Source: a virus
Taxonomy: Duplodnaviria > Caudoviricetes
Direction: 5' to 3' (one strand)
Length of the DNA stretch: 64,000 nucleotides
IMG/VR virus record: IMGVR_UViG_3300019371_000256
Location: 1-64,000 of that record
Program-made: the position numbers and the translations under genes
Notes under the pieces: generated by a model
What the model was told of the DNA's origin: nothing
What the model saw: only the letters and a program-made list of their open reading frames with translations
Database searches by the model: none
Shown: piece after piece, positions 16,957 through 54,785 of the stretch
Layout: every line of letters starts with the position of its first letter
Position numbering within the stretch: position 1 is the stretch's first letter

Positions 16957-16957
16957 C

Positions 16958-17836
16958 ATGTTTGAACAAGAGATGAAACAGAGTCCTGTAGAATTAGCAG
17001 ATGAAATCGGAATGATGTTATGTGGATTAGAAGATAAATTTATTCTTGTAGAAGGAGATTCTGATAAACGATTTTGGAATACATTACAAATTAGTAATAA
17101 AAAAAAGTATCGAATATACCTTGGTGCTAAAATAGATTCTAATAGTAACAAAGATTACGTAATTAATGTGCTAAAGTTATTATATGAAAGAAATATAGAA
17201 GCTAACATTATCGGAATTGTAGATGCGGATTATGATTTTTTAGATGATATAAATGTCTCACTTAAAAGCTTATATTATTATAAATATAAAGACTTAGAGT
17301 TGACTCTGTTAAAGAGTCCTTCTTTGGATATAGTAAATGAATTGGTCTCATCAAATAAAAAAAGGAAGCCAACTTATGAATTATTAGAATTAATTCTTAC
17401 AAAAACATATCCTCTAGGAATTCTAAGACTTGTTAATGAGAAGTATAATTATAACTTTGATTTTAAAGATATTAAATTTAAAAAGCTGTATGAAAAAACA
17501 GAGGAAGATTTTTTGAAATATTTTTGTGATTATACTAAACTACCTTTTGATGAGAGAAGTATCTTAATTGAAAGATATAAATATATTAAAAATAAAAATT
17601 ACAGAAAGGAATATATTTGTAACGGCCATGATGCATTAGAAATATTTAGTTTATTATTGAAACAAGAGATAGCTAATGAAAGTCATTGTGAGCATAATGG
17701 AGGTATACTATGTGAAATGTTAATGTCATCATACCATCATATCCAATCATTAGAAAGTCATATCGATATAGAGTCATTCGATAATATAGTTATTTCATCA
17801 ATAAAAACTAAAGAATTGAATATATTAATGACTTAA
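16958..17836 (+). CDS. DUF4435 / TOPRIM-like protein, PARIS AriB-like
   Basis: ILVEGDSD and GIVDADYD TOPRIM-type acidic motifs; CNGHD motif. Confidence 0.75.
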   Translation: MFEQEMKQSPVELADEIGMMLCGLEDKFILVEGDSDKRFWNTLQISNKKKYRIYLGAKIDSNSNKDYVINVLKLLYERNIEANIIGIVDADYDFLDDINVSLKSLYYYKYKDLELTLLKSPSLDIVNELVSSNKKRKPTYELLELILTKTYPLGILRLVNEKYNYNFDFKDIKFKKLYEKTEEDFLKYFCDYTKLPFDERSILIERYKYIKNKNYRKEYICNGHDALEIFSLLLKQEIANESHCEHNGGILCEMLMSSYHHIQSLESHIDIESFDNIVISSIKTKELNILMT

Positions 17837-18045
17837 TAAAAAGATTATTTATAAAACATGATTAATATAGTTAATAGTGCTGAGTGCAAAATTAATTGAT
17901 TACCAAATAAAGATTGTAAACTTACAATGATTTTAAGCAAATCTAACCCTTTAGATAAATCGATTATTCTGGAATTAGGATGTACTGTAAAATATTTAAA
18001 ACAAGAGTTGCTATATTATAAATAATTTCATTTTAATTGAGAAAG

Positions 18046-18234
18046 TACTGTCCCGACGCTCGCATCCGTCAAAGACAGTATTAACCCCTTCCCAAAGGTT
18101 CGTTGTCGGGGTGGGGATAACAGCAGAGAAAGTCCAGGGTATCCGCCCTGGATTTTCTTGTCTTATTGTATCTCAATATTCCTCCCTGGTTGCCCGGTGC
18201 TGCTCTGACCAAGAATTTGATTGAGCTGCACTCT
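18046..18234. ncRNA. GC-rich multi-hairpin segment; candidate ncRNA or mobile-element remnant
   Basis: Stems 18046-52/18074-80, 18084-88/18108-12 and 18127-39/18146-58 within very AT-rich flanks. Confidence 0.4.
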
Positions 18235-18366
18235 TTAACTTGTATTATTTTCCATTTATAATATAATAGATACAGAATTATTCATTTATTAATATGGTGG
18301 CATAGCTTAATATAATTGTAATAATGGGAAGTTAGAGCATCAAGAGATGCGCTGGGGGATAAATGT

Positions 18367-21330
18367 ATGTACGAACAAGAATTTCAAAGAATTGTAGACG
18401 CCTCAAGAAACCATTCCTTAACATTTTTTGTTGGCGCAGGTGTTTCGGCTCTATCCGGAGCTCCCTCCTGGAAAAAGTTAATCCAAGAAATTTGCTATAG
18501 GCTAAAACGTCCTATAAAAGAGGCGTATTCGTCAGATGAAAATTTGCAAATTCCTCAGATGTACTACTACTCTATTGAGAAAGATGATGATACGTATTAT
18601 AGCTTTATCGAAGAGCTACTTACCACTAATAACCTCCTACCAAATGAAGTTCACAAAGAATTGTTGAACTTCAATCCAAGCTCTTTTATAACAACAAACT
18701 TTGATAGCCTTATTGAGGAAGCTGCTATCCAATATTGTCAAAGCTTTAAGGTAGTTGCATGTGACGATGAAGTCTCAAGCATTAACGGCGACAGATATAT
18801 ATTGAAACTTCATGGTGACTTAAAGCATAAAAACATTGTATTTAAGGAAGAAGACTACCTAAATTATAGTGAGAATTTCAAATTAACTGAGACTCTGCTC
18901 AAGTCCATTTTTTCAACAAATACAGTTGTTTTTATTGGATATGGTTTAAATGATTACAACATAAAGTTGATTCTCAATTGGGCAAAAACGCTATTAAAAG
19001 ACCATTTTAATAAGCCTATCTTCATTTATACTGGTGAAACTCCATTAAGTACCGAAGAACTCTTATATCAAAAATCAAAAGGATTATGCGTGATTGAATG
19101 TGAAAAAATAGTTAAGCACTCCACTGATTATTTTACAAGATATATGTCTGTTCTAATGGCAATAAAAAAATCATCGGATTTATCTATCGATGGAAAAACA
19201 GAACAAGAGGCCTTTGGCATCCTATATGAACTATTAGAACCTCTTGATAGATTGAATACTTTAAGAATCAGAGATGTTTATTCTAAATTAAAGCCTTATA
19301 TAAGAATAAATGATGACGGAACAATTTTGACTTCCCCTAGCGAAAGTATTCTGATTCAATACTTTTTTAAAATAAATATGATCTCCGTCGAAGAATATGA
19401 ATCAATCCCTAAAGCTATACAAGAAAAGTATCAAGTTATTTTAAGAGTGTTTAGTAAAGCACAAATTGATAAAGTTGATATAGAACATAAGAGACACTTC
19501 TTTGCCAACAAGGAAGTTTACTTTGCTGATCCAAATTGTATAGGTTTTAATTATGAAAATATGTTTGCTTTTGCGTCAAAAAAGTATACTACAATTCGTG
19601 ATAATTACAAAAAGGGATTCTATCTTGCACGCTTAAAACAATATGACAAAGCATTCTATATGTTTGCTCAAATTGCTAATCAAGCATTTAAATCTAAGGA
19701 TTACCTATTTTATTATCTTGCAGAAGTCAACTGTATCAATCTTCGTATAATTCTACGAAATGTAAATCAGTATTACAACTGTTATGACATCGAAAAAATT
19801 GATGCGACAGCTCCAAATACTGATGACATCGAGCATTTGTTTGAAAAACTGCCAATTGAGTTTCAGAACCAATACATCAGCTTCAAAGATATACATTCAA
19901 CAAATCTATTATACCAATATTCTTATGAGGCTTTTGCTGATGGTCAAAAGCTTCGGAATGCAATAGAGTCAAATTCAATAGAGTATGGTTTTACAAGCAG
20001 TGCAAAAGCAATGTGTAGAATTAATGACTATTTACATTTCTTACTGGGTAATGGTATTGTTGTTGATCTTTTTGCTGAATTTAAAAATACTATTAATAAC
20101 TTGATGTCTCTGCTTGTCTATAAGTATTCTGTGCAAGGTAAAAAAAATCTGCAAGATGAATTTTTCCTCGGCTCTACGCAAGAGGAGGTATATTTTGATG
20201 AAATAGATTTTTATTGTTTTGTTGAATGCTTTAGTAGCAATGAATTAATTCAGTTATTTAGTAAGCATAAAGTGAAAACAATCACATTTCAAAAAATTGA
20301 TTTGGTTGAAAATGCAATAAATAATATGCTGAAATATTATGAACAGCTAATAAAAAAGAACGCAAGTTTTACAGAAATTATAAATTTACAAAGGCAAATA
20401 AAGTCATGTTTAGCTTTGCTGCGATATGTAGATATATCGCAGTCATTAGTTGAAACATTATGTCGGTTTCTTTTTAAATATGAATTCCGTGAAATACTGA
20501 TCAATGATAAAATTTCATTTCTTTATTATCAATTATTATGCAAAGAAATGTATAGTGATGTAACCTCGAAAATAATTGAGGACAAGTTGCTTTTTTATAT
20601 AGATTCTCAAATAAGGGCAATTGAGTCTTCAGAAAAATTTAATGAACCCTTGTCTAATAGTGGCCTTACCTATAGCAATTTGATCCACTACGTTGCTCCT
20701 AAAAATGAGCAATATCATTCACGTAGGGTAGCCATCCGAGTTTTGTATATTATTAAAAACAATATGACTGACATGGTTCCACATGTCTTAAAGGATTATT
20801 GGAACCATATCTCACCATATTCTCGATACAAAGTTACTACTTGGGTAAAGGAGAAATTAACATATTCTTTTAACTTTGATATGTTCACATTGCTAATTGA
20901 ATGCAACGTAAAAATTGATAAAAAATTAATTGAATCCCTTATAGGATACTTACGGGATATAATTCAGAAAGAATCTATAGAATCAAAAAAAACAGAGATT
21001 TTTACACACTCCGAAAGAGATCTCTATAGGGAATTGAAACTGGTTGGATATTGGTGTTTGATAAAAAAACTTCGTAAAGATGATTTTAAAGCCTTTGTAG
21101 GTGTTAACGATTTTTTTGACTTCTTTTACCAATACGAAAAATTTGATTTTACTAAATTTGATGTATCGTGGCTTCTAAATCTTAATTTGCAAGCACTGAA
21201 AGCAATTGCAAATAACAAACTTGTTAAAGAAAAAATCAGATTTTCTATTGTGCATGTTTTGGATGAGGGAAATGTTTTAGATACAGATAAAATGAAATTA
21301 TTAGACATATTAACACATCATTTTTGCTAA
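18367..21330 (+). CDS. dsr2: Defence-associated sirtuin, full-length DSR2-like NADase (987 aa)
   Basis: SIR2_2 motifs FFVGAGVS, ITTNFD, LKLHGD and VFIGYGLNDYNI. The long helical remainder resembles Bacillus DSR2 along its length (DNYKKGFYLARL; FDFTKFDVSWL). Confidence 0.85.
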   Translation: MYEQEFQRIVDASRNHSLTFFVGAGVSALSGAPSWKKLIQEICYRLKRPIKEAYSSDENLQIPQMYYYSIEKDDDTYYSFIEELLTTNNLLPNEVHKELLNFNPSSFITTNFDSLIEEAAIQYCQSFKVVACDDEVSSINGDRYILKLHGDLKHKNIVFKEEDYLNYSENFKLTETLLKSIFSTNTVVFIGYGLNDYNIKLILNWAKTLLKDHFNKPIFIYTGETPLSTEELLYQKSKGLCVIECEKIVKHSTDYFTRYMSVLMAIKKSSDLSIDGKTEQEAFGILYELLEPLDRLNTLRIRDVYSKLKPYIRINDDGTILTSPSESILIQYFFKINMISVEEYESIPKAIQEKYQVILRVFSKAQIDKVDIEHKRHFFANKEVYFADPNCIGFNYENMFAFASKKYTTIRDNYKKGFYLARLKQYDKAFYMFAQIANQAFKSKDYLFYYLAEVNCINLRIILRNVNQYYNCYDIEKIDATAPNTDDIEHLFEKLPIEFQNQYISFKDIHSTNLLYQYSYEAFADGQKLRNAIESNSIEYGFTSSAKAMCRINDYLHFLLGNGIVVDLFAEFKNTINNLMSLLVYKYSVQGKKNLQDEFFLGSTQEEVYFDEIDFYCFVECFSSNELIQLFSKHKVKTITFQKIDLVENAINNMLKYYEQLIKKNASFTEIINLQRQIKSCLALLRYVDISQSLVETLCRFLFKYEFREILINDKISFLYYQLLCKEMYSDVTSKIIEDKLLFYIDSQIRAIESSEKFNEPLSNSGLTYSNLIHYVAPKNEQYHSRRVAIRVLYIIKNNMTDMVPHVLKDYWNHISPYSRYKVTTWVKEKLTYSFNFDMFTLLIECNVKIDKKLIESLIGYLRDIIQKESIESKKTEIFTHSERDLYRELKLVGYWCLIKKLRKDDFKAFVGVNDFFDFFYQYEKFDFTKFDVSWLLNLNLQALKAIANNKLVKEKIRFSIVHVLDEGNVLDTDKMKLLDILTHHFC

Positions 21331-21431
21331 AGCCAATTATGATAACCGTTTTATGTATATAATAAATAGATTAAGTTAAGTATTGAGATTATTGAAAGTC
21401 ATTACTTGCAGCATATACAGGGGGTAAATAC

Positions 21432-22403
21432 ATGGAAAAACGGTATCAAATTTTTGTAAGTTCGACATTTGAGGATTTAGTAGATGAGCGTAAGAGGGTC
21501 ATAGAAACTATTTTAAATTTTAATCATATTCCAGCTGGAATGGAGTTGTTTACTGCCTCTAACGATGAACAATTTGAATATATAAAAAAAATAATGCATA
21601 ATTGTGATTATTATATTCTAATAGTTGGAGGCAGATATGGAACTATAAATCCAGATAAAGGTATAAGCTACACAGAGCAAGAATATCTTTATGCCTTGGA
21701 ATTAGGTTTACCAATTTTAGCTTTTTTACATGAGACACCATATGATTTGCCATCCAAAAGAAGGGATGATGAGAATAGAATACTATTTGATGCATTTCTA
21801 AAAAAAGTTAAAACAGGTAAGATGATTAAGTATTGGTCTAATATAGATAATTTGACTTCTTCAGTTTTACTAGGATTAAATTATGAATTTAATAATAATC
21901 CTAGGTTAGGTTGGGTGCGTGGCGGAGAAAGTAATAGTGCTGAACTTTTAAAACAAATTAATGATTTGAGGTTAGAAAAAGAGACGATAGAGAAGAAGTA
22001 TATGGAAGTTAAAGAGACTCTTCATGAAAACCAACCTAAATTTGAAAATTTAGCTGAAATGTCAGAGGTGTATACTGTCAGAGGAATAGAAATGGATGAA
22101 AATGGTGATAGCAATTTTTATGAGGATGATTTTGATTTTACTTGGAATGACATTTTTAAAGCAATTGGTCCGCACCTTAATCCTTGTGTAAAAAAAGACA
22201 TATTTGAAAAAATCGTAAAGTGTAATCTTGGTTATTATGGTTTCGAAGGAATCAGAGATGAGTGTATACAAACTATTAGGATACAGTTATATGCGCAAGG
22301 TCTTATATATCAAGATACAATATCAGGTAGCTTGCATATAGGTCTGACTCAAAAGGGAGAAGTATATCTATTGCAGATTATGACTATAAAGACGCAAAAG
22401 TAA
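21432..22403 (+). CDS. DUF4062-domain protein
   Basis: KRYQIFVSSTFEDLVDER...HIPAGMELF...YILIVGGRYG...SYTEQEYLYA. Confidence 0.85.
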   Translation: MEKRYQIFVSSTFEDLVDERKRVIETILNFNHIPAGMELFTASNDEQFEYIKKIMHNCDYYILIVGGRYGTINPDKGISYTEQEYLYALELGLPILAFLHETPYDLPSKRRDDENRILFDAFLKKVKTGKMIKYWSNIDNLTSSVLLGLNYEFNNNPRLGWVRGGESNSAELLKQINDLRLEKETIEKKYMEVKETLHENQPKFENLAEMSEVYTVRGIEMDENGDSNFYEDDFDFTWNDIFKAIGPHLNPCVKKDIFEKIVKCNLGYYGFEGIRDECIQTIRIQLYAQGLIYQDTISGSLHIGLTQKGEVYLLQIMTIKTQK

Positions 22404-22415
22404 GAAAGGTTAGCT

Positions 22416-22877
22416 ATGGAATATAATTATAATGATATATTGATACATGCAAATAAATTTTACAATATTTATTTAGAGATAGCAAAGAATAATGAAGATA
22501 AGGATGAGTATTCTTCCTATGCTGTCGAATTCGTAAATGGTACATTTACTTGTGAATTATATTTAAAAGCGTTATGTTTAAAACTGAATAAAAAGCATGC
22601 GCATGGTCATGACCTCAAGGACCTATTTATGTGTTTACCTGATGATTATAAGACTTTAATTGGGCAAAAAATGCATAAGGAAGACTATGCTTATCCTATA
22701 TATCCGAATAAAGACTGTGTATTAGATACACTCTGGTACGAGTTTAGTAAAGGATTTATTGAATATCGATATGAATATGAAAAAGTGGGTAATGGTAAAA
22801 GGTTGATTATTTTTCCAAATCTGTTATCTGAATTTGCAACTATTTTAAAAGAGGTTACTGAAAGTATCTATTTATAA
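22416..22877 (+). CDS. HEPN-like protein
   Basis: NGTFTCELYLKAL, HGHDLKDLF, FIEYRYEYE. Confidence 0.65.
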   Translation: MEYNYNDILIHANKFYNIYLEIAKNNEDKDEYSSYAVEFVNGTFTCELYLKALCLKLNKKHAHGHDLKDLFMCLPDDYKTLIGQKMHKEDYAYPIYPNKDCVLDTLWYEFSKGFIEYRYEYEKVGNGKRLIIFPNLLSEFATILKEVTESIYL

Positions 22878-22899
22878 GTATAATTACAAAATAATTACA

Positions 22900-22928
22900 T
22901 TGACACTACATATAACAGATGTTAGACT
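22900..22928 (+). promoter_or_regulatory. Sigma-A-like promoter upstream of the ParB/methylase/terminase genes
   Basis: TTGACA, 17 bp spacer, TG-n-TAGACT. Confidence 0.55.
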
Positions 22929-23013
22929 GTAAATGTAAAATTCTATCATATGTAAGGGGATTGCCGAAATGAAGACGGTAGTCCCTTTTTTGCTCCCCAG
23001 GAAGGAGCATAAG

Positions 23014-23514
23014 ATGTATATAAAGAATGTGGCAGTGGAAGAGTTGCAGGTGGCGGCATATAATCCTAGAAAGGACTTGAAACCAGAGGATGTTGAGTAT
23101 CAAAGAATTAAAAAATCTTTAGATAAGTTTGGCTGCGTTGAGCCTATTATCTGGAATGAAAAGACTGGTAACGTAGTTGGCGGACACCAAAGGCTGAGAA
23201 TACTGATGGATGAAGGTGTAGAGGCAGTTGATGTCAGTGTGGTGAATCTTGATCCAATTGAGGAGAAGGCGCTTAATGTTGCACTGAATAAGATATCCGG
23301 TAATTGGGATATTGAAAAACTGACAGATATAATGCAGGAGCTTGTAGAAAAAGACTATGCCTCGCTTACCGGATACAGTGAAAAAGAAATTGAGAAGCTA
23401 ATTGATCAGGTGAATATTGATGCAACGATAAGCACTATGGGAGAGATAGATACGGCTGATTTCTCAGCGGATAACTTTAAAAATAAGTGCCCACGTTGTG
23501 GATTTCTTTATTAG
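23014..23514 (+). CDS. ParB/Srx-like domain protein with C-terminal Zn ribbon
   Basis: AAYNPRK, FGCVEPIIWN...VVGGHQRL, ALNVALNKISGNWD, CPRCGF. Confidence 0.85.
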   Translation: MYIKNVAVEELQVAAYNPRKDLKPEDVEYQRIKKSLDKFGCVEPIIWNEKTGNVVGGHQRLRILMDEGVEAVDVSVVNLDPIEEKALNVALNKISGNWDIEKLTDIMQELVEKDYASLTGYSEKEIEKLIDQVNIDATISTMGEIDTADFSADNFKNKCPRCGFLY

Positions 23515-23525
23515 GAAGGGGATAT

Positions 23526-24542
23526 ATGTATAGACCTTGGAGCTTAAAAGAGATAGATAATATTCCCCGAAACGGCATTAAAGTATTTTCATGTTTTTCC
23601 TGTGGAGGTGGTTCCACTATGGGATACAAGCTGGCCGGCTGTCAGGTGCTTGGTAATTGTGAAATAGATCAAAGGATTAATGAACTGTATAATAGAAATC
23701 ATCATCCCTTATATTCATACAATATGGACATAAGGGATTTTGTTAAATTATCGGACAATGATCTGCCACCTGAATTATTTCAATTGGATATATTAGATGG
23801 ATCGCCGCCATGTAGTGTGTTTTCAATGTCCGGGAACCGTGAGAACGACTGGGGGAAAGCCAAACGATTCCGGGAGGGCCAGGCAGCCCAAACGTTGGAT
23901 GATTTGTTCTTTGAATTTATATCCGTCATTCGAAAATTAAAGCCAAAAGTATTCATAGCTGAAAATGTAAAAGGTATGCTACATGGCAGTGCAAAAGGTT
24001 ATATAAGTGAGATCCTCAATAAAGTTGATGAAGCTGGATATAAAGTCCAGCTTTTTTGCTTAAATTCTGCCGTAATGGGCGTTCCACAGCGCCGTGAAAG
24101 AGTATTTTTTATTGGTCATAGAAAAGAGCTGCCATACTCAAAGTTGAATCTGGATTTTACCATGAGACCGATTCGCTTTGGAGAGATCAGGAGCTTAGCC
24201 GGTGGACCGGTTACTAAAGAGACATATCAACTTTTGAAGCACAAAACACCAACCGACCGCAATTTGGCTGATATCAATAACCGGCTGTTTAATAAACAGA
24301 GTAGATTTAATGCAGCTGTAGTTTGGGACAGCATTGTTTCGCCAACCATTACATCTAATGGTGATTTCCTGAGGGCTATCGACGACAGTAAATTTTCAGA
24401 TATGGATTACATTAATTGCCAGACGTTCCCTGTGGATTATGATTTTAATAAGACCAGCGTTCAATATGTATGTGGAATGTCTGTGCCACCGCTGATGATG
24501 AAGGAAATAGCAACTCAGATATGCAATCAGTGGTTTTTCTAA
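23526..24542 (+). CDS. Orphan C5 DNA cytosine methyltransferase
   Basis: Motif I FSCFSCGGG, catalytic GSPPC, ENV, QRRERVFF, C-terminal GMSVPP. Confidence 0.9.
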   Translation: MYRPWSLKEIDNIPRNGIKVFSCFSCGGGSTMGYKLAGCQVLGNCEIDQRINELYNRNHHPLYSYNMDIRDFVKLSDNDLPPELFQLDILDGSPPCSVFSMSGNRENDWGKAKRFREGQAAQTLDDLFFEFISVIRKLKPKVFIAENVKGMLHGSAKGYISEILNKVDEAGYKVQLFCLNSAVMGVPQRRERVFFIGHRKELPYSKLNLDFTMRPIRFGEIRSLAGGPVTKETYQLLKHKTPTDRNLADINNRLFNKQSRFNAAVVWDSIVSPTITSNGDFLRAIDDSKFSDMDYINCQTFPVDYDFNKTSVQYVCGMSVPPLMMKEIATQICNQWFF

Positions 24543-45022: not shown

Positions 45023-45841
45023 ATGGCTGATTTTGAAATTGAAAAAGAGTATAGGGAACAACTGCGGAAATTAGAAACAACAGATCCTGCCCATGCTGAC
45101 CTATTTAATTCAACGTTTTCAACATTAATAAATAATGATGCATACCTCAACGAGCAGAATAACAAAATCAAACAACCAGAATTTGATGATTCTGGCAGCG
45201 TAGATGAAATAAAAGACTTCCCATCATTTTTATCATCTATGGTATCTAAGATGAGTATATTTAAGTTTTTTTCAGATTTGAAAGCTGGATTAAAATTTGT
45301 ATTACATACAGGGCAAATAGTCAATAACTGTGTTACGGACCGGTCAGACCTTCCAGGTTCGGCACATAATGATAAGGTTTTGATGGATAAATATTTGGCG
45401 TTAAGTAGTGATTTAAGTGAACGGCTTTTCTTTGGTGCTGGTACTGCGTTGCAAGCAAAGAACGGTACGACGTGGTACAGATTACAAATTAATCCTGATA
45501 ATTCAACAGGTGTTTTTAAGTCTATCGATAATGGTACCACATGGCCAATTTTTGAAAGATTTATAACAGAATCTGGATCAGTTAAAATAAAGAGTGGGTA
45601 CATAAACATTGCAACGACTGCTTCTTACGGCAATGAATACCAGGGATCTATGTCCATTCCATCTATCATTTCAGCTTTTAGTCTTACAGATAAAACGGTT
45701 TTGACAGTCATTTGTCGGGGAGGCAATCTTATATCAGATGGTGCAATTGTCCCAAAACATGGTTCAGACGGTTCTATATTTACACTCTCTGGTGCTGTGT
45801 CGGGTACATACAGGATGCATTTCGATATACTTTATAAATAA
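45023..45841 (+). CDS. Tail fibre / receptor-binding protein with a switchable C-terminus (currently cassette 1)
   Basis: LETTDPAHADLFN N-terminus typical of tail fibres. The recombination site encodes L127-S-S-D-L131. Confidence 0.82.
   Translation: MADFEIEKEYREQLRKLETTDPAHADLFNSTFSTLINNDAYLNEQNNKIKQPEFDDSGSVDEIKDFPSFLSSMVSKMSIFKFFSDLKAGLKFVLHTGQIVNNCVTDRSDLPGSAHNDKVLMDKYLALSSDLSERLFFGAGTALQAKNGTTWYRLQINPDNSTGVFKSIDNGTTWPIFERFITESGSVKIKSGYINIATTASYGNEYQGSMSIPSIISAFSLTDKTVLTVICRGGNLISDGAIVPKHGSDGSIFTLSGAVSGTYRMHFDILYK
45401..45415 (+). repeat. Shufflon site A TTAAGTAGTGATTTA, inside the tail-fibre gene
   Basis: 45403-45416 is the perfect reverse complement of 46097-46110. Confidence 0.88.
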
Positions 45842-45848
45842 TGATTAA

Positions 45849-46109
45849 TTAAATCCATGACCTCCACTGATTTCCCCAGCGCATACGATGTTTAAAGTCA
45901 TTATTCCAGTCAAAGAATAGCTGGATACCACTCGGACCATTATTAAATATGATGATAATTCCATCTTTCCCCGTTGGCGTTTTTGTACTTCCGTCATTTC
46001 GTATGTCAATAGTAGCAATTTGCGTCTCCCGTAAATTATCCAGAGTTATAAGTGAACCATCTCCAATGGAATAGTTATTATATGGGAGGATGCTCGTTAA
46101 ATCACTACT
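45849..46109 (-). other. Silent tail-fibre cassette 2 (86 aa, no start codon, not in the ORF track)
   Basis: Open frame from site B: SSDLTSILPYNNYSIG...QLFFDWNNDFKHRMRWGNQWRSWI*; in-frame TAA immediately upstream. Confidence 0.85.
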
Positions 46110-46112
46110 TTA
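46098..46112 (-). repeat. Shufflon site B TAAAGTAGTGATTTA
   Basis: Inverted copy of site A, in frame with cassette 2. Confidence 0.88.
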
Positions 46113-46205
46113 TTAAAAAGATGGTAATAAACAAAATATTGTAATATTTTCCTTTTAAGTCTATAATTAAAAATGGATAAATAATCTGTATAGGGGGAAT
46201 TATGT

Positions 46206-47090
46206 ATGTTTAAAAAGAAAAATACGATAGGGTTTATAATCGGAGCATTAGCAATAATTACTGTAGCAATAACTAACAACACGAATAGTTATGCAAAAAG
46301 TGATTTTGCCGTAACAACAAGGGATGAATCTATTGAATATAATGGAGTTACATATAAAAGAATTCAAGTTGATGGTGGAGATTTATCAGGTTCAAGGCAA
46401 CCTAATGTGGCGGTAGATGTTGGGTATGGGGATAGAACATATTGGGCGTTAACAAATGAGCATAGTCAGCTTGTGTATGTAATAGCTGACAAAATCACCT
46501 TGCAAGATGAAAACACAGAACAAGTTACTTCTGAGGGACGTTATTATAGTGATGAGGCAAAAGTACCTGGCACTGAAAGGTCAGACTTAGATGAAGGACA
46601 TGTCATAGCAGATAGTCTTGGTGGAGTTTCGAATGCATACAATATAACACCACAAGATAGCACTTTAAATCGCCATGGAGATCAAGCCTATATGGAGAAA
46701 GTGATTCGTGATGCAGGTGGTTGTGAACATTTCATAGCTACTATCACATATCCAGATACTTCAACTCAAATTCCGTCACATTATCATTATGAATATATAC
46801 TCAAAGGGAATGCGGTTGTAGATGATTTTGATAATATAAATCCTGACGAAGTTAATAAAGCACAAGCAGATAAACAACAAAAAGAATCAAATGTAACAAG
46901 TGGAAATAATAATTCTAGTGAATCTAGTATAAATGAACAAGAGGAACTGAAAAAGATAGATACTAATGGCAATGGTAAAGTTACAATAGCCGAAGCAAAA
47001 GCAGCTGGATACAAAATGCCAATCTATTCAACTCATTGGTTGTATAAATATATGGATGACCGAGATGGAGATGGTATGGTAGGAGAATAA
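46206..47090 (+). CDS. Secreted DNA/RNA non-specific endonuclease with C-terminal EF-hand-like motifs (moron)
   Basis: Signal-peptide-like N-terminus; DEGHVIADSLGG...NITPQDSTLN; DTNGNGKVT and DRDGDG. Confidence 0.85.
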   Translation: MFKKKNTIGFIIGALAIITVAITNNTNSYAKSDFAVTTRDESIEYNGVTYKRIQVDGGDLSGSRQPNVAVDVGYGDRTYWALTNEHSQLVYVIADKITLQDENTEQVTSEGRYYSDEAKVPGTERSDLDEGHVIADSLGGVSNAYNITPQDSTLNRHGDQAYMEKVIRDAGGCEHFIATITYPDTSTQIPSHYHYEYILKGNAVVDDFDNINPDEVNKAQADKQQKESNVTSGNNNSSESSINEQEELKKIDTNGNGKVTIAEAKAAGYKMPIYSTHWLYKYMDDRDGDGMVGE

Positions 47091-47148
47091 TAGTCATGTT
47101 AATAGGAGCCGTAAGGCTCCTGTTTTTTTATAAAGAAAGGAGTTCTTA

Positions 47149-47886
47149 ATGGAAAAAGTTAAAATAGGAGATAAGGAACTATTCTATGATATCCAAGAGA
47201 TTCTTCCCATTAATACACATGTTTTGCGTATCGTTTTTGCTAACTCACTGCCTGCAAGTTACGGAGACATTACTACGTATACAGCTGGGGGAATTGAAGG
47301 AGTTACGCTTACTGGTTACGATACAGTTTATCGTGATGAGGGCAAGACAGTTTATTTAAGCAATGATAAAAGTGTTTATATACCAGTGGAAACCTCTACC
47401 GGGCCTATGGATCCACCGGAACCACATTCCCCCACTATGAAGGAACTAAAGGCATCAAAGCTTAGGGAAATATCGGCCGCCTGTGAAAAGTCAATCTATG
47501 CAGGAGTAGATGTTAATTTAGCTGATGGAGTAATAGAACATTTTTCCCTTACTGAACACGATCAGCTCAATTTGTTCGGAAAACAAATCCAGGTGTCAGC
47601 AGGTGTAGAGAAAATAGAATACCATTCAGATGGTATGCCATGCCGATATTATAATGCTGCTGATATGCAGACTATAATTTCGGCAGCTATGTGGCATGTA
47701 TCTTACCATACTACATATTGTAATGCACTTAATATATGGATATCCGGGATTGAGCAAGCAGGGGATCTGGAAACTATTTCCTATGGGGTGGAAGTTCCCG
47801 AGGCTTACCAATCGGACGTACTTAAAGCATATTTTATACAGAAGGCTGCCATGACGGAAGGAGAAAGAGATGAAACAGCAAGCTAA
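47149..47886 (+). CDS. DUF4376-like tail-associated protein
   Basis: KASKLREISAACEKSIYAG, HFSLTEHDQLNL, YHTTYCNAL. Confidence 0.7.
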   Translation: MEKVKIGDKELFYDIQEILPINTHVLRIVFANSLPASYGDITTYTAGGIEGVTLTGYDTVYRDEGKTVYLSNDKSVYIPVETSTGPMDPPEPHSPTMKELKASKLREISAACEKSIYAGVDVNLADGVIEHFSLTEHDQLNLFGKQIQVSAGVEKIEYHSDGMPCRYYNAADMQTIISAAMWHVSYHTTYCNALNIWISGIEQAGDLETISYGVEVPEAYQSDVLKAYFIQKAAMTEGERDETAS

Positions 47887-48286
47887 ATACATATTTTTAT
47901 TAGTGTCCGGTGGATTTATGTACAGCATTATAGAAATTTTATATCGGGGGTATACCCACTGGACCATGTTTATTTTGGGCGGTTTATGTTTTATATGTCT
48001 AGGGTTAATTAATGAGTTGATTCCTTGGAGTACGCCACTCTGGAAGCAGATGCTTATTGGTATGGCTATAATTACATGCTTGGAGTTTATAACTGGGTGT
48101 ATAGTCAATATATGGCTTGGGTGGGGCATTTGGGATTACAGTAATTTGCCAGGTAATATATTTGGCCAGATTTGTCCTCAGTTCACTTTCTTATGGTTTT
48201 GGATAAGCGCTGCCGGGATAATATTAGACGATTGGCTTAGATATTGGCTTTTTGAAGAAGAACGGCCACATTATAAATTAATATAG
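47870..48286 (+). CDS. Integral membrane protein (putative ABC-transporter type IV family)
   Basis: RGYTHWTMFILGGLCF; EFITGCIVNIWLGWGIWDYS; GQICPQF. Confidence 0.8.
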   Translation: MKQQAKYIFLLVSGGFMYSIIEILYRGYTHWTMFILGGLCFICLGLINELIPWSTPLWKQMLIGMAIITCLEFITGCIVNIWLGWGIWDYSNLPGNIFGQICPQFTFLWFWISAAGIILDDWLRYWLFEEERPHYKLI

Positions 48287-48301
48287 GAGGATAAGGTTAC
48301 G

Positions 48302-48607
48302 TTGACTTTTTGGGATTATGTAAAAGAGTCTTGGCCGGGATGGGTGTGTTCAGCAGCTGTCCCGGCCATCATTTATTTATATACACAGGTTATGGCCAGC
48401 CGTAATGGCGTAAGAGCCCTTTTGAGAGCAGAAATAATAAGAGTGTATAACAAGTATCATGATGATTTAAAGTATTGTCCAATTTATGTTAAACAATCCA
48501 TGGAGGATATTTATAAACAGTATCATGCTCTGAAAGGTAATGGAGTTGGTACAAAGCTTTATGAAGAAATTATGGAATTACCAACAGAAAAAGAGGAGGA
48601 AAATTAA
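48302..48607 (+). CDS. Lysis-cassette membrane protein
   Basis: One TM segment, then GVRALLRAEII...YKQYHALKGNGVG. Confidence 0.6.
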   Translation: MTFWDYVKESWPGWVCSAAVPAIIYLYTQVMASRNGVRALLRAEIIRVYNKYHDDLKYCPIYVKQSMEDIYKQYHALKGNGVGTKLYEEIMELPTEKEEEN

Positions 48608-48811
48608 ATGAACAATGAAAAGATTTTAAAGTGGGTAAGAGCTGCAGGGGTAAGAGCAGTTAAGACAATGGCGCAGACGGCCATTGCAACCATTGGGACT
48701 ACAGCGGTAATGTCTGGGGTAGATTGGATTATGGTAGGATCAGCAACGGCACTGGCCGGGATTCTTTCTATACTTACATCGGTGGCTGGGCTACCGGAAT
48801 TAAAAGATTAA
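48608..48811 (+). CDS. Holin (r1t type)
   Basis: WVRAAGVRAVKTMAQTAIA...SILTSVAGLPE. Confidence 0.88.
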   Translation: MNNEKILKWVRAAGVRAVKTMAQTAIATIGTTAVMSGVDWIMVGSATALAGILSILTSVAGLPELKD

Positions 48812-48886
48812 TTTGTTGCGACCGTCGCAACACTATGGACCTGGGACATCCTGGGTCCTTTTTCTATTGAAAGGAAGGGGAATATC

Positions 48887-49759
48887 ATGATTAGTAATTG
48901 TGGACATGACGAAAATGGAAAATACACAGGTGGTAAAGCCGGGGATCAGACTGGTGGAGAGTACGCAGTAATTAATTGGTATAACCGTCCATGGGCCTGT
49001 GTGTTAAGGTATCCAGATATTAATGTAGGGTTAAAGATTGCGGAGATTTCTAAAGCTGCAGCAATTAATAATAACGTGGGTTATGATCAGGGACAGAGAC
49101 TTACATATTACAACTGCTTACGAGCTGTAAATTGGGATCCTGCTAAGATCATAACTCCATGTGAGGGTGACTGTAGTGCAACAACGGCAGCAAATGTGAT
49201 TGCCGCCGGAAATCTATTAGGTTTTAGTAAGTTAAAATCTATCAATCCATCAAACACTACATCGACATTGCGTAAGGCTCTTGTTGCAGTAGGATTTGAA
49301 CTTTTGACAGACAGCAAGTACCTTACAGGTGATAACTATTTGCTTCCGGGAGATATTCCACTATATGATGGACATCACGTAGCAGTTAACCTTGATTATG
49401 GATCAGAAGTTAAGCCAGCAGAAGAGAAGAAATCCGGCTGGATAAAAATAACAGATGGATGGATGTATTATAATGGTGATACCGATTTGCCGGTTCGTAA
49501 TGATTGGGTAGAGGATCAGAGCAAGTGGTACTGGTTTAACGCGGCCGGGATCATGGTCACGAATACCTGGTATCAGTATAATGCTGCATGGTATTATTTA
49601 GGACCGGATGGGGCTATGTGCCAGTCACAGCTTGTGGAGAATTCCGGGAAGATTTATGCAGTGGACACAGATGGAAAAATGGTTACAGGTGAAATTTTGT
49701 TATCTACTTTGAGCGACGGGACGCTGCAGTACAAAGGTTTAATAGGAGACGGCAAGTAA
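48887..49759 (+). CDS. Endolysin (NlpC/P60-like catalytic domain plus cell-wall-binding repeats)
   Basis: GHDENGKYTGGKAGDQTG, CEGDCSA, GHHVAVN; WYWFNAAGIM and WYYLGPDGAM repeats. Confidence 0.9.
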   Translation: MISNCGHDENGKYTGGKAGDQTGGEYAVINWYNRPWACVLRYPDINVGLKIAEISKAAAINNNVGYDQGQRLTYYNCLRAVNWDPAKIITPCEGDCSATTAANVIAAGNLLGFSKLKSINPSNTTSTLRKALVAVGFELLTDSKYLTGDNYLLPGDIPLYDGHHVAVNLDYGSEVKPAEEKKSGWIKITDGWMYYNGDTDLPVRNDWVEDQSKWYWFNAAGIMVTNTWYQYNAAWYYLGPDGAMCQSQLVENSGKIYAVDTDGKMVTGEILLSTLSDGTLQYKGLIGDGK

Positions 49760-49856
49760 TATTACTTTGAACCCAGAACCGGTCATTAACTGTAATGCGC
49801 TATGTATGTTTCAAATCATGATGGGGTGCAGTATATAGGTACATTTTAATTAATGT

Positions 49857-49883
49857 TGGCGGGCTCTTGTCCTGAGTCCGCCA
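49857..49883. terminator. Hairpin after the endolysin
   Basis: TGGCGGGCTC-N7-GAGTCCGCCA. Confidence 0.6.
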
Positions 49884-49924
49884 TTAAAAGTACTTTTCAA
49901 TTTTAGGGTCGTATGGTATTATAG

Positions 49925-50164
49925 TTAAGTAGAGTGGCAGAAAGAGAGGCCACATGAGTAGTAATAATAACTGTCTGAAAGCAATCAATTTAATTCATTT
50001 CGATGGCAAATCAATTAGTCTAAATAATGTATGTATGTCTCATACAATTTTTCAAGAAAACCAAGTTTTACAAGCAGCAATCTACGGTGATATGATAGTT
50101 ATAACTTCAGCAATGGAAGAAGAAAAAGAAAGTAATTAATTTGTATTATAGCCACTCTACTTAA
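49925..50164. repeat. Perfect 14-bp inverted repeat TTAAGTAGAGTGGC (49925-49938 / 50151-50164) bracketing the 61-aa ORF
   Basis: Direct reading of both arms. Confidence 0.85.
49954..50139 (+). CDS. Small protein, possibly SymE/AbrB-fold
   Basis: Own extended -10 (49914-49922) and RBS. Hydrophobic register ISLNNVCMSHTIFQENQVLQAAIYGDMIVIT matches the SymE pattern by eye only. Confidence 0.45.
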   Translation: MSSNNNCLKAINLIHFDGKSISLNNVCMSHTIFQENQVLQAAIYGDMIVITSAMEEEKESN

Positions 50165-50263
50165 ATTTTACTTTAATATACAAAATTGATTTTTTAAAGT
50201 AATAAGATTATAATAAAAAAACGATTTTAAACTGAATATCAATTATATAATAATCAAATTTAT

Positions 50264-50953
50264 TTGGAGGAAGTTTATATGGATAAAGAGTTAATTAATA
50301 CCGAGAATATTGATGAAATATCAATAAAAAGAATAATTGATGGTTTAACAGGTTTTATATCTGGAAGTAAGGCAGACTATGCACACTCAGCAAATAGATT
50401 ATTGAAAAGCCTATTTGCTCATGATTTTTTATTTCAGTTACAAAAAGAATGGGATAAATATGTCGATAGAGGTAATATTGACTTAGATTATAAAAAATCA
50501 AAGCCATTCTTAAATAGTTTATCTGAATTAATGGACTATCTTGATACGGATTTACCAAATGATGAGATAGCTCTAACTTTAAAAAAGTTATTCTTTATAC
50601 CAGCTTTTAAAGACTATTACAAAGAAGACAAGCTTTTAGCAATTGAATATATGAAAATAATAAGAAAGTTAACGCCAGGTGAAATGGTGGTTTTGTTTAC
50701 AGCATATAATAATGTTGGAATAAGTACAGACAGTGCTTCAAAATGGTTGGAAATAATTGCAGAGAAATCCACTCTGAAATATACAGAACTAGTAGAGCTG
50801 CATGAAAAGAAATTAATTGATTTAAATCTGATTACAAAACGTAAATATGAGGATAATAGTGGATTATGGGTTGGAAAATATTCTCGCTTAACAAGTTTGG
50901 GGTATAACTTATGTCATTTCATAAAATTGTATGATGAATTTAATGAGAGATAA
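50264..50953 (+). CDS. AT-rich hypothetical moron protein (229 aa)
   Basis: ORF with low GC; C-terminal LIDLNLI...LTSLGYNL winged-helix-like segment. Confidence 0.65.
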   Translation: MEEVYMDKELINTENIDEISIKRIIDGLTGFISGSKADYAHSANRLLKSLFAHDFLFQLQKEWDKYVDRGNIDLDYKKSKPFLNSLSELMDYLDTDLPNDEIALTLKKLFFIPAFKDYYKEDKLLAIEYMKIIRKLTPGEMVVLFTAYNNVGISTDSASKWLEIIAEKSTLKYTELVELHEKKLIDLNLITKRKYEDNSGLWVGKYSRLTSLGYNLCHFIKLYDEFNER

Positions 50954-50965
50954 AAAATTGTATTG

Positions 50966-51032
50966 AATCCTTATACTAATAATGAAATACAACTTTATTT
51001 TTTGGTGGTATTTCATTATTAGTGTAAGGATT
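50966..51032. terminator. 25-bp stem with 17-nt loop between convergent genes
   Basis: AATCCTTATACTAATAATGAAATAC pairs with GTATTTCATTATTAGTGTAAGGATT (one G-U). Confidence 0.7.
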
Positions 51033-51036
51033 TATA

Positions 51037-52053
51037 TTACGGTACATATTTTCTATGGGCTTCCTGTACGGTGGCTTTGGCAATAGCTGCATAGCACTGC
51101 TTTGTTGTGTCCAGTTGGACGTGCCCTAATTTCTCGGCCACAAGTTCCAGAGGAGCCCCCTTATTAATCATATCTGTGCCAACGGTGCGTCGGAAAACAT
51201 GAGGCGTTAATTTGACTGCAGCAAGATCATTGTCTCTATTCTTGATTCGTTTTAATATATTTCTTACTGTGCTACTACTTACACGGTTATGAGGTTTTTG
51301 ATTTGTTACAAATAAAGCCTGGTTATTATCGGTACGGCTTTTAAGATACCGTTCTAAATGAACCTTTGCTTGGCCGTTAAAATACACCTCTCTTTCCTTA
51401 CGTCCTTTTCCGTATACAATGGCTTTCATATCGGAAAAATCAACATCATTGATATTTAAGCGGCAAAGCTCAGATACCCGTATCCCAGAGGAATATAGTA
51501 AATCGCATAATGCTAATTCCATTTCATTTTTGCAGGCGCAGCGAACCTCTTCCCGCTGTTCAGCTTTAAGGGTCGGACCTATACGACGTTCTACTTTGGT
51601 TTCTTTTAGCTTTTTGGCTGGGTTATCAGGTAGCATATCCTCTTCATATAGCCAACCGAAGAAGCTCCTCATGCATATTAGCTTACTATTATATGTACGA
51701 TCTTTCCATTTTCGAAAAAGTTTTCCGTATGCAAGATAACCTTTTAGATCTGAATATGATATTTCAATAATATTTTTATTTATATAATCAAGCATATTTT
51801 GAAGATTATTTTTATAATTTGCAATACTGGCATCAGTGCATCCGTCAAGCTTCATTTGTATTAGATATTGTCTTAAATATTCTTCCGTACAATCAATTTT
51901 GGTAGATAAACCTGTTCTGGCCTCTTCTTTAATTAATTTATAATTTCCTAAATACATATATATGAGTAATTTTGTTTCGTGTATTTTTTCTGTTTTTATT
52001 ATCCCTGCTATTTCAAACTGCAATACTAAATCATTTATAACATTTTCTTCCAT
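51037..52053 (-). CDS. Tyrosine recombinase (XerD-like), putative shufflon invertase
   Basis: Catalytic set GIRVSEL, VYGKGRKER, HVFRR, LGH, TTKQCY; SAM-like N-terminus; adjacent to sites C and D. Confidence 0.92.
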   Translation of the reverse strand: MEENVINDLVLQFEIAGIIKTEKIHETKLLIYMYLGNYKLIKEEARTGLSTKIDCTEEYLRQYLIQMKLDGCTDASIANYKNNLQNMLDYINKNIIEISYSDLKGYLAYGKLFRKWKDRTYNSKLICMRSFFGWLYEEDMLPDNPAKKLKETKVERRIGPTLKAEQREEVRCACKNEMELALCDLLYSSGIRVSELCRLNINDVDFSDMKAIVYGKGRKEREVYFNGQAKVHLERYLKSRTDNNQALFVTNQKPHNRVSSSTVRNILKRIKNRDNDLAAVKLTPHVFRRTVGTDMINKGAPLELVAEKLGHVQLDTTKQCYAAIAKATVQEAHRKYVP

Positions 52054-52077
52054 GGTGCACCCCTGTAAACTTATTAC

Positions 52078-52140
52078 AGTTAGAATATAACCATTATCGT
52101 TATATTAGAGAAAAAGTTAGAATATAACACATTCCGTTAT
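52078..52140. promoter_or_regulatory. Direct repeat AGTTAGAATATAAC x2, each copy the left arm of an AATATAAC-N7-GTTAT(ATT) dyad
   Basis: Copies at 52078-52091 and 52115-52128; right arms at 52099-52106 and 52136-52140. Confidence 0.6.
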
Positions 52141-52154
52141 TCCGGGATTTTGTT

Positions 52155-52169
52155 TTAAATAGTGATTTA
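52155..52169 (+). repeat. Shufflon site C TTAAATAGTGATTTA
   Basis: 14/15 identical to site A; in frame (LNSDL) with ORF 52170. Confidence 0.88.
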
Positions 52170-52691
52170 ATGTATAAAGGTAATGCCAATGATTTAGATA
52201 CGTTAATCAATGAAGAATACACTGATAAGGTTATAACAAACAGTTATAATTACTCCTCCACGGGAGTGCCAGAAAACTCAAGCGGATATGTTATTACATA
52301 CTACAGGACACCTGCCAGCGTATTACAAAATTTATATACTTTCACAGGGAACTGTTATACAAGGCGCAGAGACATTAATACAACACCTACATGGGTAAAA
52401 CTCCCATCAAATGAAGATTTAGAAAACAAATTATCTACCAATGCTTTTTACATTACGAATATAAAGACTTTAGCTGATTTGTATTCCGCCTATGCCAGTG
52501 GTATCATATTTGTTTATAATAGTACTGGAAATGTCCCAAGTTATGGTAGTGGAATTATATTACGATGTTCAAACTCTAACTTTAAACTCTTACTTGTAGA
52601 TGATGATACTGATGCAATGTATCTATGGTCATTAACGGGTGCGGCTGGAACAGCTCTAATAATTAGTGCGAATAAAACCAAGGTTATTTAA
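52158..52691 (+). other. Silent tail-fibre cassette 3 (177 aa from N of NSDL)
   Basis: NSDL-MYKGNANDLD...VPENSSGYV...CYTRRRDINTTPTWVKL knob-like domain plus a second domain. Confidence 0.82.
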
Positions 52692-52698
52692 TGATCAT

Positions 52699-53013
52699 TT
52701 ATGCTATCATCTTCCAGGCAAGCCAGCTTAGGTATCCATAAAAATGATTTCTGTAATATACATTGTTCCTTTTGATATCAAACAGTATTTGAACTCCGTG
52801 AAAACTTACTTTGGATAAAATAGGATAAGTGTTGAATGAAAATACGAATACCGCTTCTCCTCCTGTCGCTCCAGAAATGGAAGGACCATTGGTGATATCT
52901 AAAACATACGAAAAATAAAATCCGCTGGTTATAGCATTTAAATCTAAATTCTCAGTATAGGGTGGAGAAATCATTAATTTGGGAAGTAATGTTTGTGCAC
53001 CTAAATCACTATT
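52699..53013 (-). other. Silent tail-fibre cassette 4 (104 aa)
   Basis: NSDLGAQTLLPKL continues in frame into ORF 52974 (DLNAITSGFYF...VQILFD...VYYRNHFYGYLSWLAWK); in-frame TAA immediately upstream. Confidence 0.85.
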
Positions 53014-53016
53014 TTA
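53002..53016 (-). repeat. Shufflon site D TAAAATAGTGATTTA
   Basis: 53002-53014 is the perfect reverse complement of 52157-52169. Confidence 0.88.
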
Positions 53017-53122: not shown

Positions 53123-54067
53123 ATGAGTAATCTGTTTGTTTTTGGTAATGGTTTTGATTTGGCTCATGGTTTTGATACAAGCTATGATGATTTTAAAATA
53201 TGGCTTAGTGAAAAATATGATGAATCATCAGATTCGTATGAGTCGTTTCCTAAATACAACACTAATTATAAAAGGTTTGAATCATTTAGTTTTGAAAGCA
53301 TGTCTTATTTTTTCTATAATCTTATTTACAATGTAGTTGGTAGTGATTGGAGACAATTTGAAGCAGCATTGTCAAAACTTGATTGGGTTTCAATAATCGA
53401 AAATGAATGTTATGGCAGTAATTATAAAGAACGAATGTTCCAAGCTGAGGATATAGCTGTACAAATAAGAGATTTTGCTCACGTTTTAAAAGATAGTCTA
53501 TTTAAAAGTTGGGCTGAGGAAATTGACATTTCACACCCTAAGTCAATTTCAGAAGAACTTATAGGATTGATTGATAATGAACATGATTATTTCTTGAATT
53601 TCAATTATACTGATACACTTGAAAAACACTATAATATCAATAATGTTTGCCATATACACGGACAATCTTCTAAACATGATAGTTTGATCGTGGGACATTC
53701 GGGAAAAGATAAAATAGAGTTTGATAGCTATTTGACTATTACTTATTCTTACATTCGACAGATTTATGAAGATTATCGAAAAGATACTAAAAACATATAT
53801 AAAAAGCACATGGATTTTTTTAATAAATTATATAATAATAATATTACTAATATTTATATACACGGTTTTTCATTTTCAGATGTTGATATGTTTTACTTAA
53901 AAAAAATCGCACTAAAACTAGATACTTCTGTGGTACGTATTCATCTACATAGCTATTTAGAGGAGGACTTTGAAGGCTTCAAAAAGAAACTCATTAGATG
54001 TGGATTCCATAATATTAACATTATACAGTTTAGATTATCTGATATCAATGATGTATGTGAGATATGA
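53123..54067 (+). CDS. abiH: AbiH-family abortive infection protein
   Basis: LFVFGNGFDLAHGFDTSYDDF, FLNFNYTDTLE, HIHG, IYIHGFSFSDVDMFY. Confidence 0.85.
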   Translation: MSNLFVFGNGFDLAHGFDTSYDDFKIWLSEKYDESSDSYESFPKYNTNYKRFESFSFESMSYFFYNLIYNVVGSDWRQFEAALSKLDWVSIIENECYGSNYKERMFQAEDIAVQIRDFAHVLKDSLFKSWAEEIDISHPKSISEELIGLIDNEHDYFLNFNYTDTLEKHYNINNVCHIHGQSSKHDSLIVGHSGKDKIEFDSYLTITYSYIRQIYEDYRKDTKNIYKKHMDFFNKLYNNNITNIYIHGFSFSDVDMFYLKKIALKLDTSVVRIHLHSYLEEDFEGFKKKLIRCGFHNINIIQFRLSDINDVCEI

Positions 54068-54582: not shown

Positions 54583-54785
54583 TGACACCCAAATGGCACC
54601 CATATGTTGAAAATGCTATTGATATTGTACGGAATGAGCGGTTAAATTGAACGTATTATAGCATATGTGTACGCTAACGATTACCGGTCAATATTGAGTT
54701 TGAATAAAAAATTTGAGCCCGCAAAGCCTTATAAAATAAGGATTTGTGGGCTCTCTTTATGTCGTTTGGTACTATTTTGGTATTA
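54583..54785. other. Candidate attR junction: arm-type repeats, guaA-like core and hairpin
   Basis: 11-bp-period repeats at 54583/54594 and 54766/54777; ATTGAGTTTGAATAA (IEFE*) at 54693-54707; hairpin 54715-54753. Confidence 0.5.

Follow-up and report, generated by a model that had tools for sequence, protein, structure and literature searches.

Tail-fibre genes are common targets of programmed inversion, as a survey of such inversions has reported. In the R64/IncI shufflon, the tyrosine recombinase Rci reportedly performs multiple inversions at asymmetric sites that select the C-terminus of the adhesin-like protein PilV; there the target is a plasmid pilus, the segments are contiguous and the recombinase lies outside them, whereas the locus described here concerns a phage fibre and has its recombinase between two cassette pairs. 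In Mycoplasma pulmonis one tyrosine recombinase, HvsR, serves the separate vsa and hsd loci, which have a common short site. Our recombinase would likewise serve separate loci; the HvsR loci are different genes, whereas here the remote locus would feed the same gene. Inversion of the fibre C-terminus alters host range in the systems of Gin, Cin, Pin and Min (Mu, P1, e14 and p15B) and in the FR-phi gin shufflon (PMC13418256). Several cassettes are present in Min and FR-phi, as they are here, yet all of these systems use serine invertases with an enhancer and Fis, unlike the tyrosine recombinase of our locus.

Tyrosine-recombinase fibre shufflons are already known. The Rin shufflon of Bifidobacterium prophages has a phage-encoded tyrosine-family invertase (Mavrich et al. 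2018, PMC6109161) and, like our locus, a constant 5′ receptor-binding part followed by start-less, dissimilar 3′ cassettes, each after a short asymmetric site (PMC6109161). Rin is contiguous (Rc, Rv1-5, rin) with an 11-bp rix site, TTCCCTAACCC, whereas the window, by which we mean the whole 64,000-nucleotide stretch of DNA that was analysed, has two pairs with 6 kb of lysis genes and the recombinase between them. No rix sequence was found in the window with up to one mismatch, and the likeness of the Rin recombinase to ours is one of family. A BV01-like Phocaeicola phage, also a gut temperate phage, has an active, recombinase-flanked, multi-cassette shufflon at its fibre 3′ end, but that shufflon is compact (1.7 kb), its 10-bp motif is TGGGAGAACT, and it has three cassettes, none of them in a remote pair (PMC13596623). 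These fibre systems, of the serine and of the tyrosine type, are all contiguous, and the literature searched described none in which a recombinase and lysis genes separate an expression pair of cassettes from a remote one. It is this split layout that is new here.

We propose, with a probability of about 0.8, that the window has a tail-fibre shufflon with four sites at two loci, that positions 52157-53014 are its second pair of cassettes, and that the tyrosine recombinase next to them operates it. The features concerned are the following.

45023..45415, plus strand: the 131 codons of the tail-fibre gene that encode its constant N-terminal part, the last four being S128-S129-D130-L131; a strong ribosome-binding site is present
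45403-45415, plus strand: site A, AAGTAGTGATTTA, inside the fibre gene (codons 128-131), putative crossover point of the expression site
45416..45841, plus strand: cassette 1, 141 codons, the tip currently expressed
45849..46109, minus strand: cassette 2, a silent tip of 86 codons that begins SSDL and has two stop codons before it
46098-46110, minus strand: site B, AAGTAGTGATTTA, where homology to the sibling phage resumes exactly
46111..51036, plus strand: segment between the two loci, with a secreted nuclease, a DUF4376 tail protein, membrane proteins, holin, endolysin and an unknown 229-aa gene (Pfam, PHROG)
51037-52053, minus strand: XerC/D/XerA-like tyrosine recombinase, the presumed invertase (Pfam Phage_integrase, 8e-33)
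52054..52156, no strand: recombinase upstream region, with two 26-nt direct repeats at 52078-52103 and 52115-52140 (AGTTAGAATATAAC...)
52157-52169, plus strand: site C, AAATAGTGATTTA
52158..52691, plus strand: cassette 3, 177 codons, in which NSDL is followed by domain a (up to about 52409) and, beyond a decayed site within the cassette (AATGAAGATTTA, 52410-52421), by domain b
52699..53013, minus strand: cassette 4, 104 codons from NSDL, preceded by TAA
53002-53014, minus strand: site D, AAATAGTGATTTA, where the match of the sibling phage to the window begins exactly
54693-54707, plus strand: attR core of 15 bp, ATTGAGTTTGAATAA, an exact repeat of the guaA 3′ end at G000:C5:377581-377595 (L076 5582-5596)

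The four sites are copies of the degenerate 13-mer AARTAGTGATTTA, for which 0.01 copies would be expected within the 64-kb window. Two lie on each strand, so that the locus has, as looked for in a shufflon, at least three copies and both orientations. Position 3 is G in A and B and A in C and D, while the remaining positions are identical at all four sites; the perfect 13-bp inverted pair that the first-pass annotation had described for C and D is thus real. The in-frame reading is (S/N)SDL at 4/4 sites and each ORF runs away from its site, each site opening an alternative 3′ frame for one gene with a constant 5′ part. Site C can be written as TTAAAT-AGTG-ATTTAA, with inverted arms (TTAAAT / ATTTAA) and an asymmetric centre, AGTG, which is the same at all four sites. 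Inverted arms round an asymmetric centre are the expected form of a tyrosine-recombinase core, and sites A to D look like such a core; the asymmetric AGTG would fix the orientation of each site. Sites A and C have the same orientation and so form direct repeats, and so do B and D; the inverted pairs are A-B, C-D, A-D and B-C. A fifth copy of the 13-mer, in the 4.5-Mb genome, lies 175 kb off inside an ordinary host ORF. With about 1.5 copies expected by chance, it was rejected as a shufflon site and taken for a chance match within a host gene.

At the remote locus the ORFs 52170..52691 (plus) and 52699..52974 (minus) converge, as reported from the ORF list, and both open upstream in frame to the NSDL of their site. 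The TAA noted before site D is the codon that precedes NSDL; at site C, a stop comes first and the frame is then open for the 10 codons ahead of NSDL. The earlier remark that neither ORF has a convincing ribosome-binding site also stands, since direct reading shows no purine-rich Shine-Dalgarno sequence for either ATG (52170 or 52974), in contrast to the fibre gene (AAAGGAGGAG; 272 codons in all) and AbiH (AAGGAG). In shuffled local sequence, open frames of 104 and 177 codons arise with P of ~3e-4 and <1e-4, respectively.

The cassettes of the remote locus are found as fibre tips in relatives. The sibling phage contig L009, with 94–96% backbone identity and a conserved gene order across the segment between the loci, encodes a fibre of 231 codons (1451-2146) composed of the same N-terminus (92% at the amino acid level), SSDL and cassette 4 at 97.8% nucleotide identity. 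Its homology to the fibre locus of the window ends at site A, and its match to cassette 4 lies on the minus strand of the window. At the L009 junction, the left flank is that of A and the right flank that of D. The expressed L009 fibre protein is identical over the 13 codons that separate NSDL from ATG 52974, and cassette 4 differs from its L009 counterpart at 7 positions, with dN/dS ~0.2. The sibling comparison for cassette swaps that had been suggested thus places a remote tip of the window on the fibre of another phage. More widely, the fibre N-terminus is 92–97% identical in L009, P0001 and P0002, and divergence starts directly after SSDL. In P0002 (219 aa), the same N-terminus (93%) and SSDL are joined to a relative of cassette 3's second half, whereas P0001 (247 aa) has yet another tip. 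Judged from these alignments, at least four different tips occur on the fibre N-terminus of the window. Against 200 genomes of the family, this N-terminus gave distant matches only, and no relatives of cassette 1 were found in viral contigs.

The first-pass annotation had read the locus as an unexpressed store and had set against its own reading the outcome that the cassettes are never joined to the fibre N-terminus. L009 for cassette 4 and P0002 for a relative of cassette 3 domain b contradict that outcome, and the reading is further supported by the recurrence of the pair beside the recombinase. A contig of the same metagenome as L009, L074, carries the first 64 recombinase codons (97%), and upstream of them two inverted site copies round two converging start-less cassettes, unlike cassettes 3 and 4, with an extra gene between this pair and the recombinase. 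That L009 and L074, as separate contigs of one metagenome, belong to one phage is not proven. The partner of cassette 4 is cassette 3 in the window and another cassette, c5, in L009; c5 is absent from the window. Since this pairing is beyond the reach of inversions alone, some other exchange occurs. No sibling of the remote DNA was found among 40 relatives, and the whole region gave no match to GenBank phages by megablast. The sibling assembly breaks in the recombinase gene, between codons 64 and 100 (L044 1-717, L074 2036-2227).

Cassette 3 has two domains, as the earlier reading had it: residues 1–88 and 85–177 match different protein sets, and pLDDT exceeds 90 only from about residue 95. 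In an exhaustive protein search, residues 1–88 matched domains that follow NSDL, GDL or NADL in fibres of 259–600 aa. In the expressed long fibres, the residue after this motif is M, I or V and is aligned with Met 52170. By this conservation, Met 52170 is an internal residue and not a start codon. Residues 85–177 matched the C-terminal ends of fibres of 218–302 aa, and domain b is the expressed tip in P0002, L016, L017 and P0122. In L016 and L017, this tip comes after the identical DNA site, AATAGTGATTTA, and behind the tip stand a silent cassette and a partner of the site in inverted orientation. Domain b was predicted as a compact domain with pLDDT >90, whereas domain a gave no confident fold. 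The best structural matches of domain b were the domains at the C-terminal ends of the phage K gp144 and phi812 receptor-binding proteins (Z 6.0–6.4, VIA-align); the predicted fold thus resembles phage receptor-binding C-terminal domains, which is suggestive only. Foldseek of cassette 3 against the PDB returned nothing significant, and Pfam, NCBIfam and PHROGs held no match for the cassettes. The knob-like residue pattern earlier seen in both cassettes holds only loosely, and the cassettes have no BLASTP match to each other.

The sequence at the domain boundary of cassette 3 differs from the site at 3 central positions. A similar decayed internal site, reading HSDL, is present in the sibling cassette c6, and at the homologous position L104 has an intact site followed by a relative of the sibling cassette c5. 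From the decayed sites in two cassettes and the intact one in L104, the two-domain cassettes look like tandem cassettes with a decayed internal site. Multi-module fibres in series exist naturally (e.g. P0129). Cassette 3 may thus be two tandem tips that, with the internal site decayed, would be read as one two-domain tip.

The recombinase gene starts 104 bp from site C, so that a recombinase stands beside the cassettes, as would be expected of a dedicated enzyme. In Pfam, its sole match is Phage_integrase together with SAM-like N-terminal domains, and the identity of a serine invertase was rejected. Aligned to XerA (4a8e) and XerD (1a0p), it has the R, K, HxxR, H and Y positions occupied. We also rejected a XerC/XerD/XerA chromosome-dimer resolvase: its NCBIfam scores lie below all equivalog cut-offs (185 vs 220 for XerA, 166 vs 335 for XerC and 153 vs 330 for XerD), the gene is phage-borne and it adjoins cassettes. 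Its NCBIfam matches include no Rci-named model, which may reflect the content of the library. Because the prophage has its own integrase at attL, a 461-aa tyrosine integrase directly inside it, the recombinase is a second enzyme with no integration role left to it. Its nearest relative among named genomes is from a Lachnospiraceae bacterium. Homologues of 61–70% identity had no fibre genes in their flanks by tblastn and no clear four-site pattern, and the sole homologue locus in which ORFs were read (L026) also lacked fibre genes; the recombinase family alone is therefore not diagnostic of a shufflon. The upstream region is 93% identical to the sibling contig L074 up to 52141, and the 26-nt repeats, which are partly kept there, could be an operator or an accessory site.

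A layout of pair, recombinase and pair recurs, as read from the contigs, in two lineages besides that of the window. In the first (L036, L037, L068 and L070), the recombinase is 55–57% identical and the site is CTAAAT-AGCA-ATTTAG, with the same arms and another centre. L036 has four site copies: a pair on a 272-codon fibre gene, followed by a small tail gene and the recombinase, and a second pair by the recombinase start; in L037, L068 and L070 a cassette pair adjoins the recombinase. The second lineage has a fibre N-terminus that is 67% and a recombinase that is only 34% identical; in L011, the fibre is followed by a pair, the recombinase, another pair and the DUF4376 gene. The backbone of L010, a contig of the same phage from another metagenome, is 100.000% identical to that of L011 over 2879 nt. 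Compared with L011 2880-6194, L010 10230-11324 carries the far pair (99.9%) in inverted form, attached to the fibre at the site; neither the recombinase nor the two cassettes of the near pair are present. L010 is either a true recombination product or an assembly path through a mixed isomer population; from either origin it follows that fibre-to-far-cassette junctions must exist in nature. A relative of L011, L013 (4508-10441), has a simple two-cassette fibre locus, with no invertase between the fibre and the phage integrase. Relatives of the sibling cassettes c6a, c5 and c7 lie in L104 (1572-2480 and 4268; 755-aa fibre) as a contiguous silent array in which the c6a-c5 site is intact. The identical site and cassettes were also found on unrelated fibre N-termini, which points to a traffic of tips between phages.

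The exchanges themselves, their attribution to the adjacent recombinase, their frequency and their route we infer from the arrangement of the sites. The cassettes lie tail to tail, two at each locus (A>c1 c2<B and C>c3 c4<D), and only the one behind site A is translated; the other three have neither a start codon nor a ribosome-binding site, and an in-frame stop precedes two of these. Inversion between A and B would exchange cassettes 1 and 2, and inversion between C and D would change the remote cassette that faces outward at site D. A 7.6-kb inversion between A and D would bring a remote cassette onto the fibre, with the holin, endolysin and recombinase genes reversed. A second inversion, between B and C, would restore the orientation of the lysis and recombinase genes, with the net result that the two pairs have exchanged places. 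In the present orientation, an A-C exchange, one of the two routes proposed in the first-pass annotation, would delete the lysis genes and the recombinase; a viable phage would arise only by A-D inversion followed by B-C inversion. In the A-D intermediate, the holin and endolysin genes would point away from the late operon; for a prophage this would do no harm, but lysis of the cell would probably be impossible.

Could the same features have arisen otherwise? The cassettes at C-D may be real fibre-tip DNA that gets onto the fibre only through rare events, e.g. recombination between co-resident related phages at the shared site, with no programmed switching. We regard this as unlikely. It would account for sibling cassette sets that differ in ways inversion cannot give and for the same cassettes in phages with unrelated N-termini, and it avoids a 7.6-kb inversion that would reverse lysis genes. 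Yet C and D are perfect and have their centre in common with A and B, the recombinase is intact and adjacent, the layout has been kept across three lineages, and L010 and L011 differ only by a site-bounded rearrangement on a 100% identical backbone. A purely local switch, in which C-D inverts alone and controls the neighbouring recombinase or AbiH without supplying tips, seems very improbable to us. Two intact coding cassettes, which elsewhere serve as fibre tips, fill the segment, and AbiH has its own promoter-like site and ribosome-binding site, even though C-D does stand between the recombinase upstream region and the AbiH promoter region and site C has direct repeats next to it. Nor was an outward promoter evident, in a scan that is uninformative in such AT-rich DNA (46 found vs 51 expected).

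That the locus consists of two independent small genes, translated from ATG 52170 and ATG 52974, is hardly credible. Both have an ATG and gene finders would call them, P0121 being such a call of 173 aa. However, neither has a ribosome-binding site, both frames begin at a recombination site, the sibling fibre contains, in conserved form, the 13 codons that precede ATG 52974, and Met 52170 aligns with an internal M/I/V of expressed fibres. A further possibility, which we hold to be doubtful, is that the recombinase and its adjacent pair form a self-mobilising module, excised as a circle at direct sites and re-entering any fibre gene or other place that bears the site. The difference between L011 and L010 would then be the excision of such a module. 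Integron-like traffic of this kind would explain identical cassettes and a 12-13-bp site on unrelated N-termini, as well as the differing placement of the module, which adjoins the fibre in L011 and in the window lies on the far side of the lysis genes.

If the two-locus shufflon is real, its consequences concern host choice, because tail-fibre tips decide which bacteria a phage attaches to. Since the sibling carries cassette 4 on the same fibre, the virus can probably change the bacteria that it attaches to. With four stored tips (five modules) and a store that lies apart from the fibre gene, the potential host range would be wider than annotation suggests; start-less cassettes are missed by gene callers or called hypothetical proteins. 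In the split layout, switching would also re-orient the lysis genes and the recombinase, which may tie the choice of tip to the prophage state and limit the isomers able to form plaques. The site, shared as it is by unrelated fibres, points to a currency that gut Lachnospiraceae phages have in common for exchanging tips, and this matters both for host range predicted from metagenomes and for assembly breaks at fibre genes.

Finally, the host of the ~58-kb prophage to which the locus belongs is a low-GC Firmicute (family Lachnospiraceae). By the 15-bp att repeats, 52155-53016 lies within the prophage, near its right end. It is preceded by baseplate J, a Mu gp48-like protein, a tail-collar fibre piece, the fibre gene, the nuclease, the DUF4376 tail protein, holin and endolysin; AbiH and an HTH gene lie to its right, and a type I restriction-modification system further right, outside the prophage. 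The nuclease, at 46206-47090, is a secreted DNA/RNA non-specific endonuclease with an EF-hand-like tail, and it has its own promoter-like site and terminator. It is moron-like and stands between the fibre locus and the tail and lysis genes. The prophage also has several defence-type genes, at 15550-24542 and 53123-54067: an AAA_15/21 ATPase, a 987-aa SIR2-like protein, DUF4062, a C5 methylase and AbiH.
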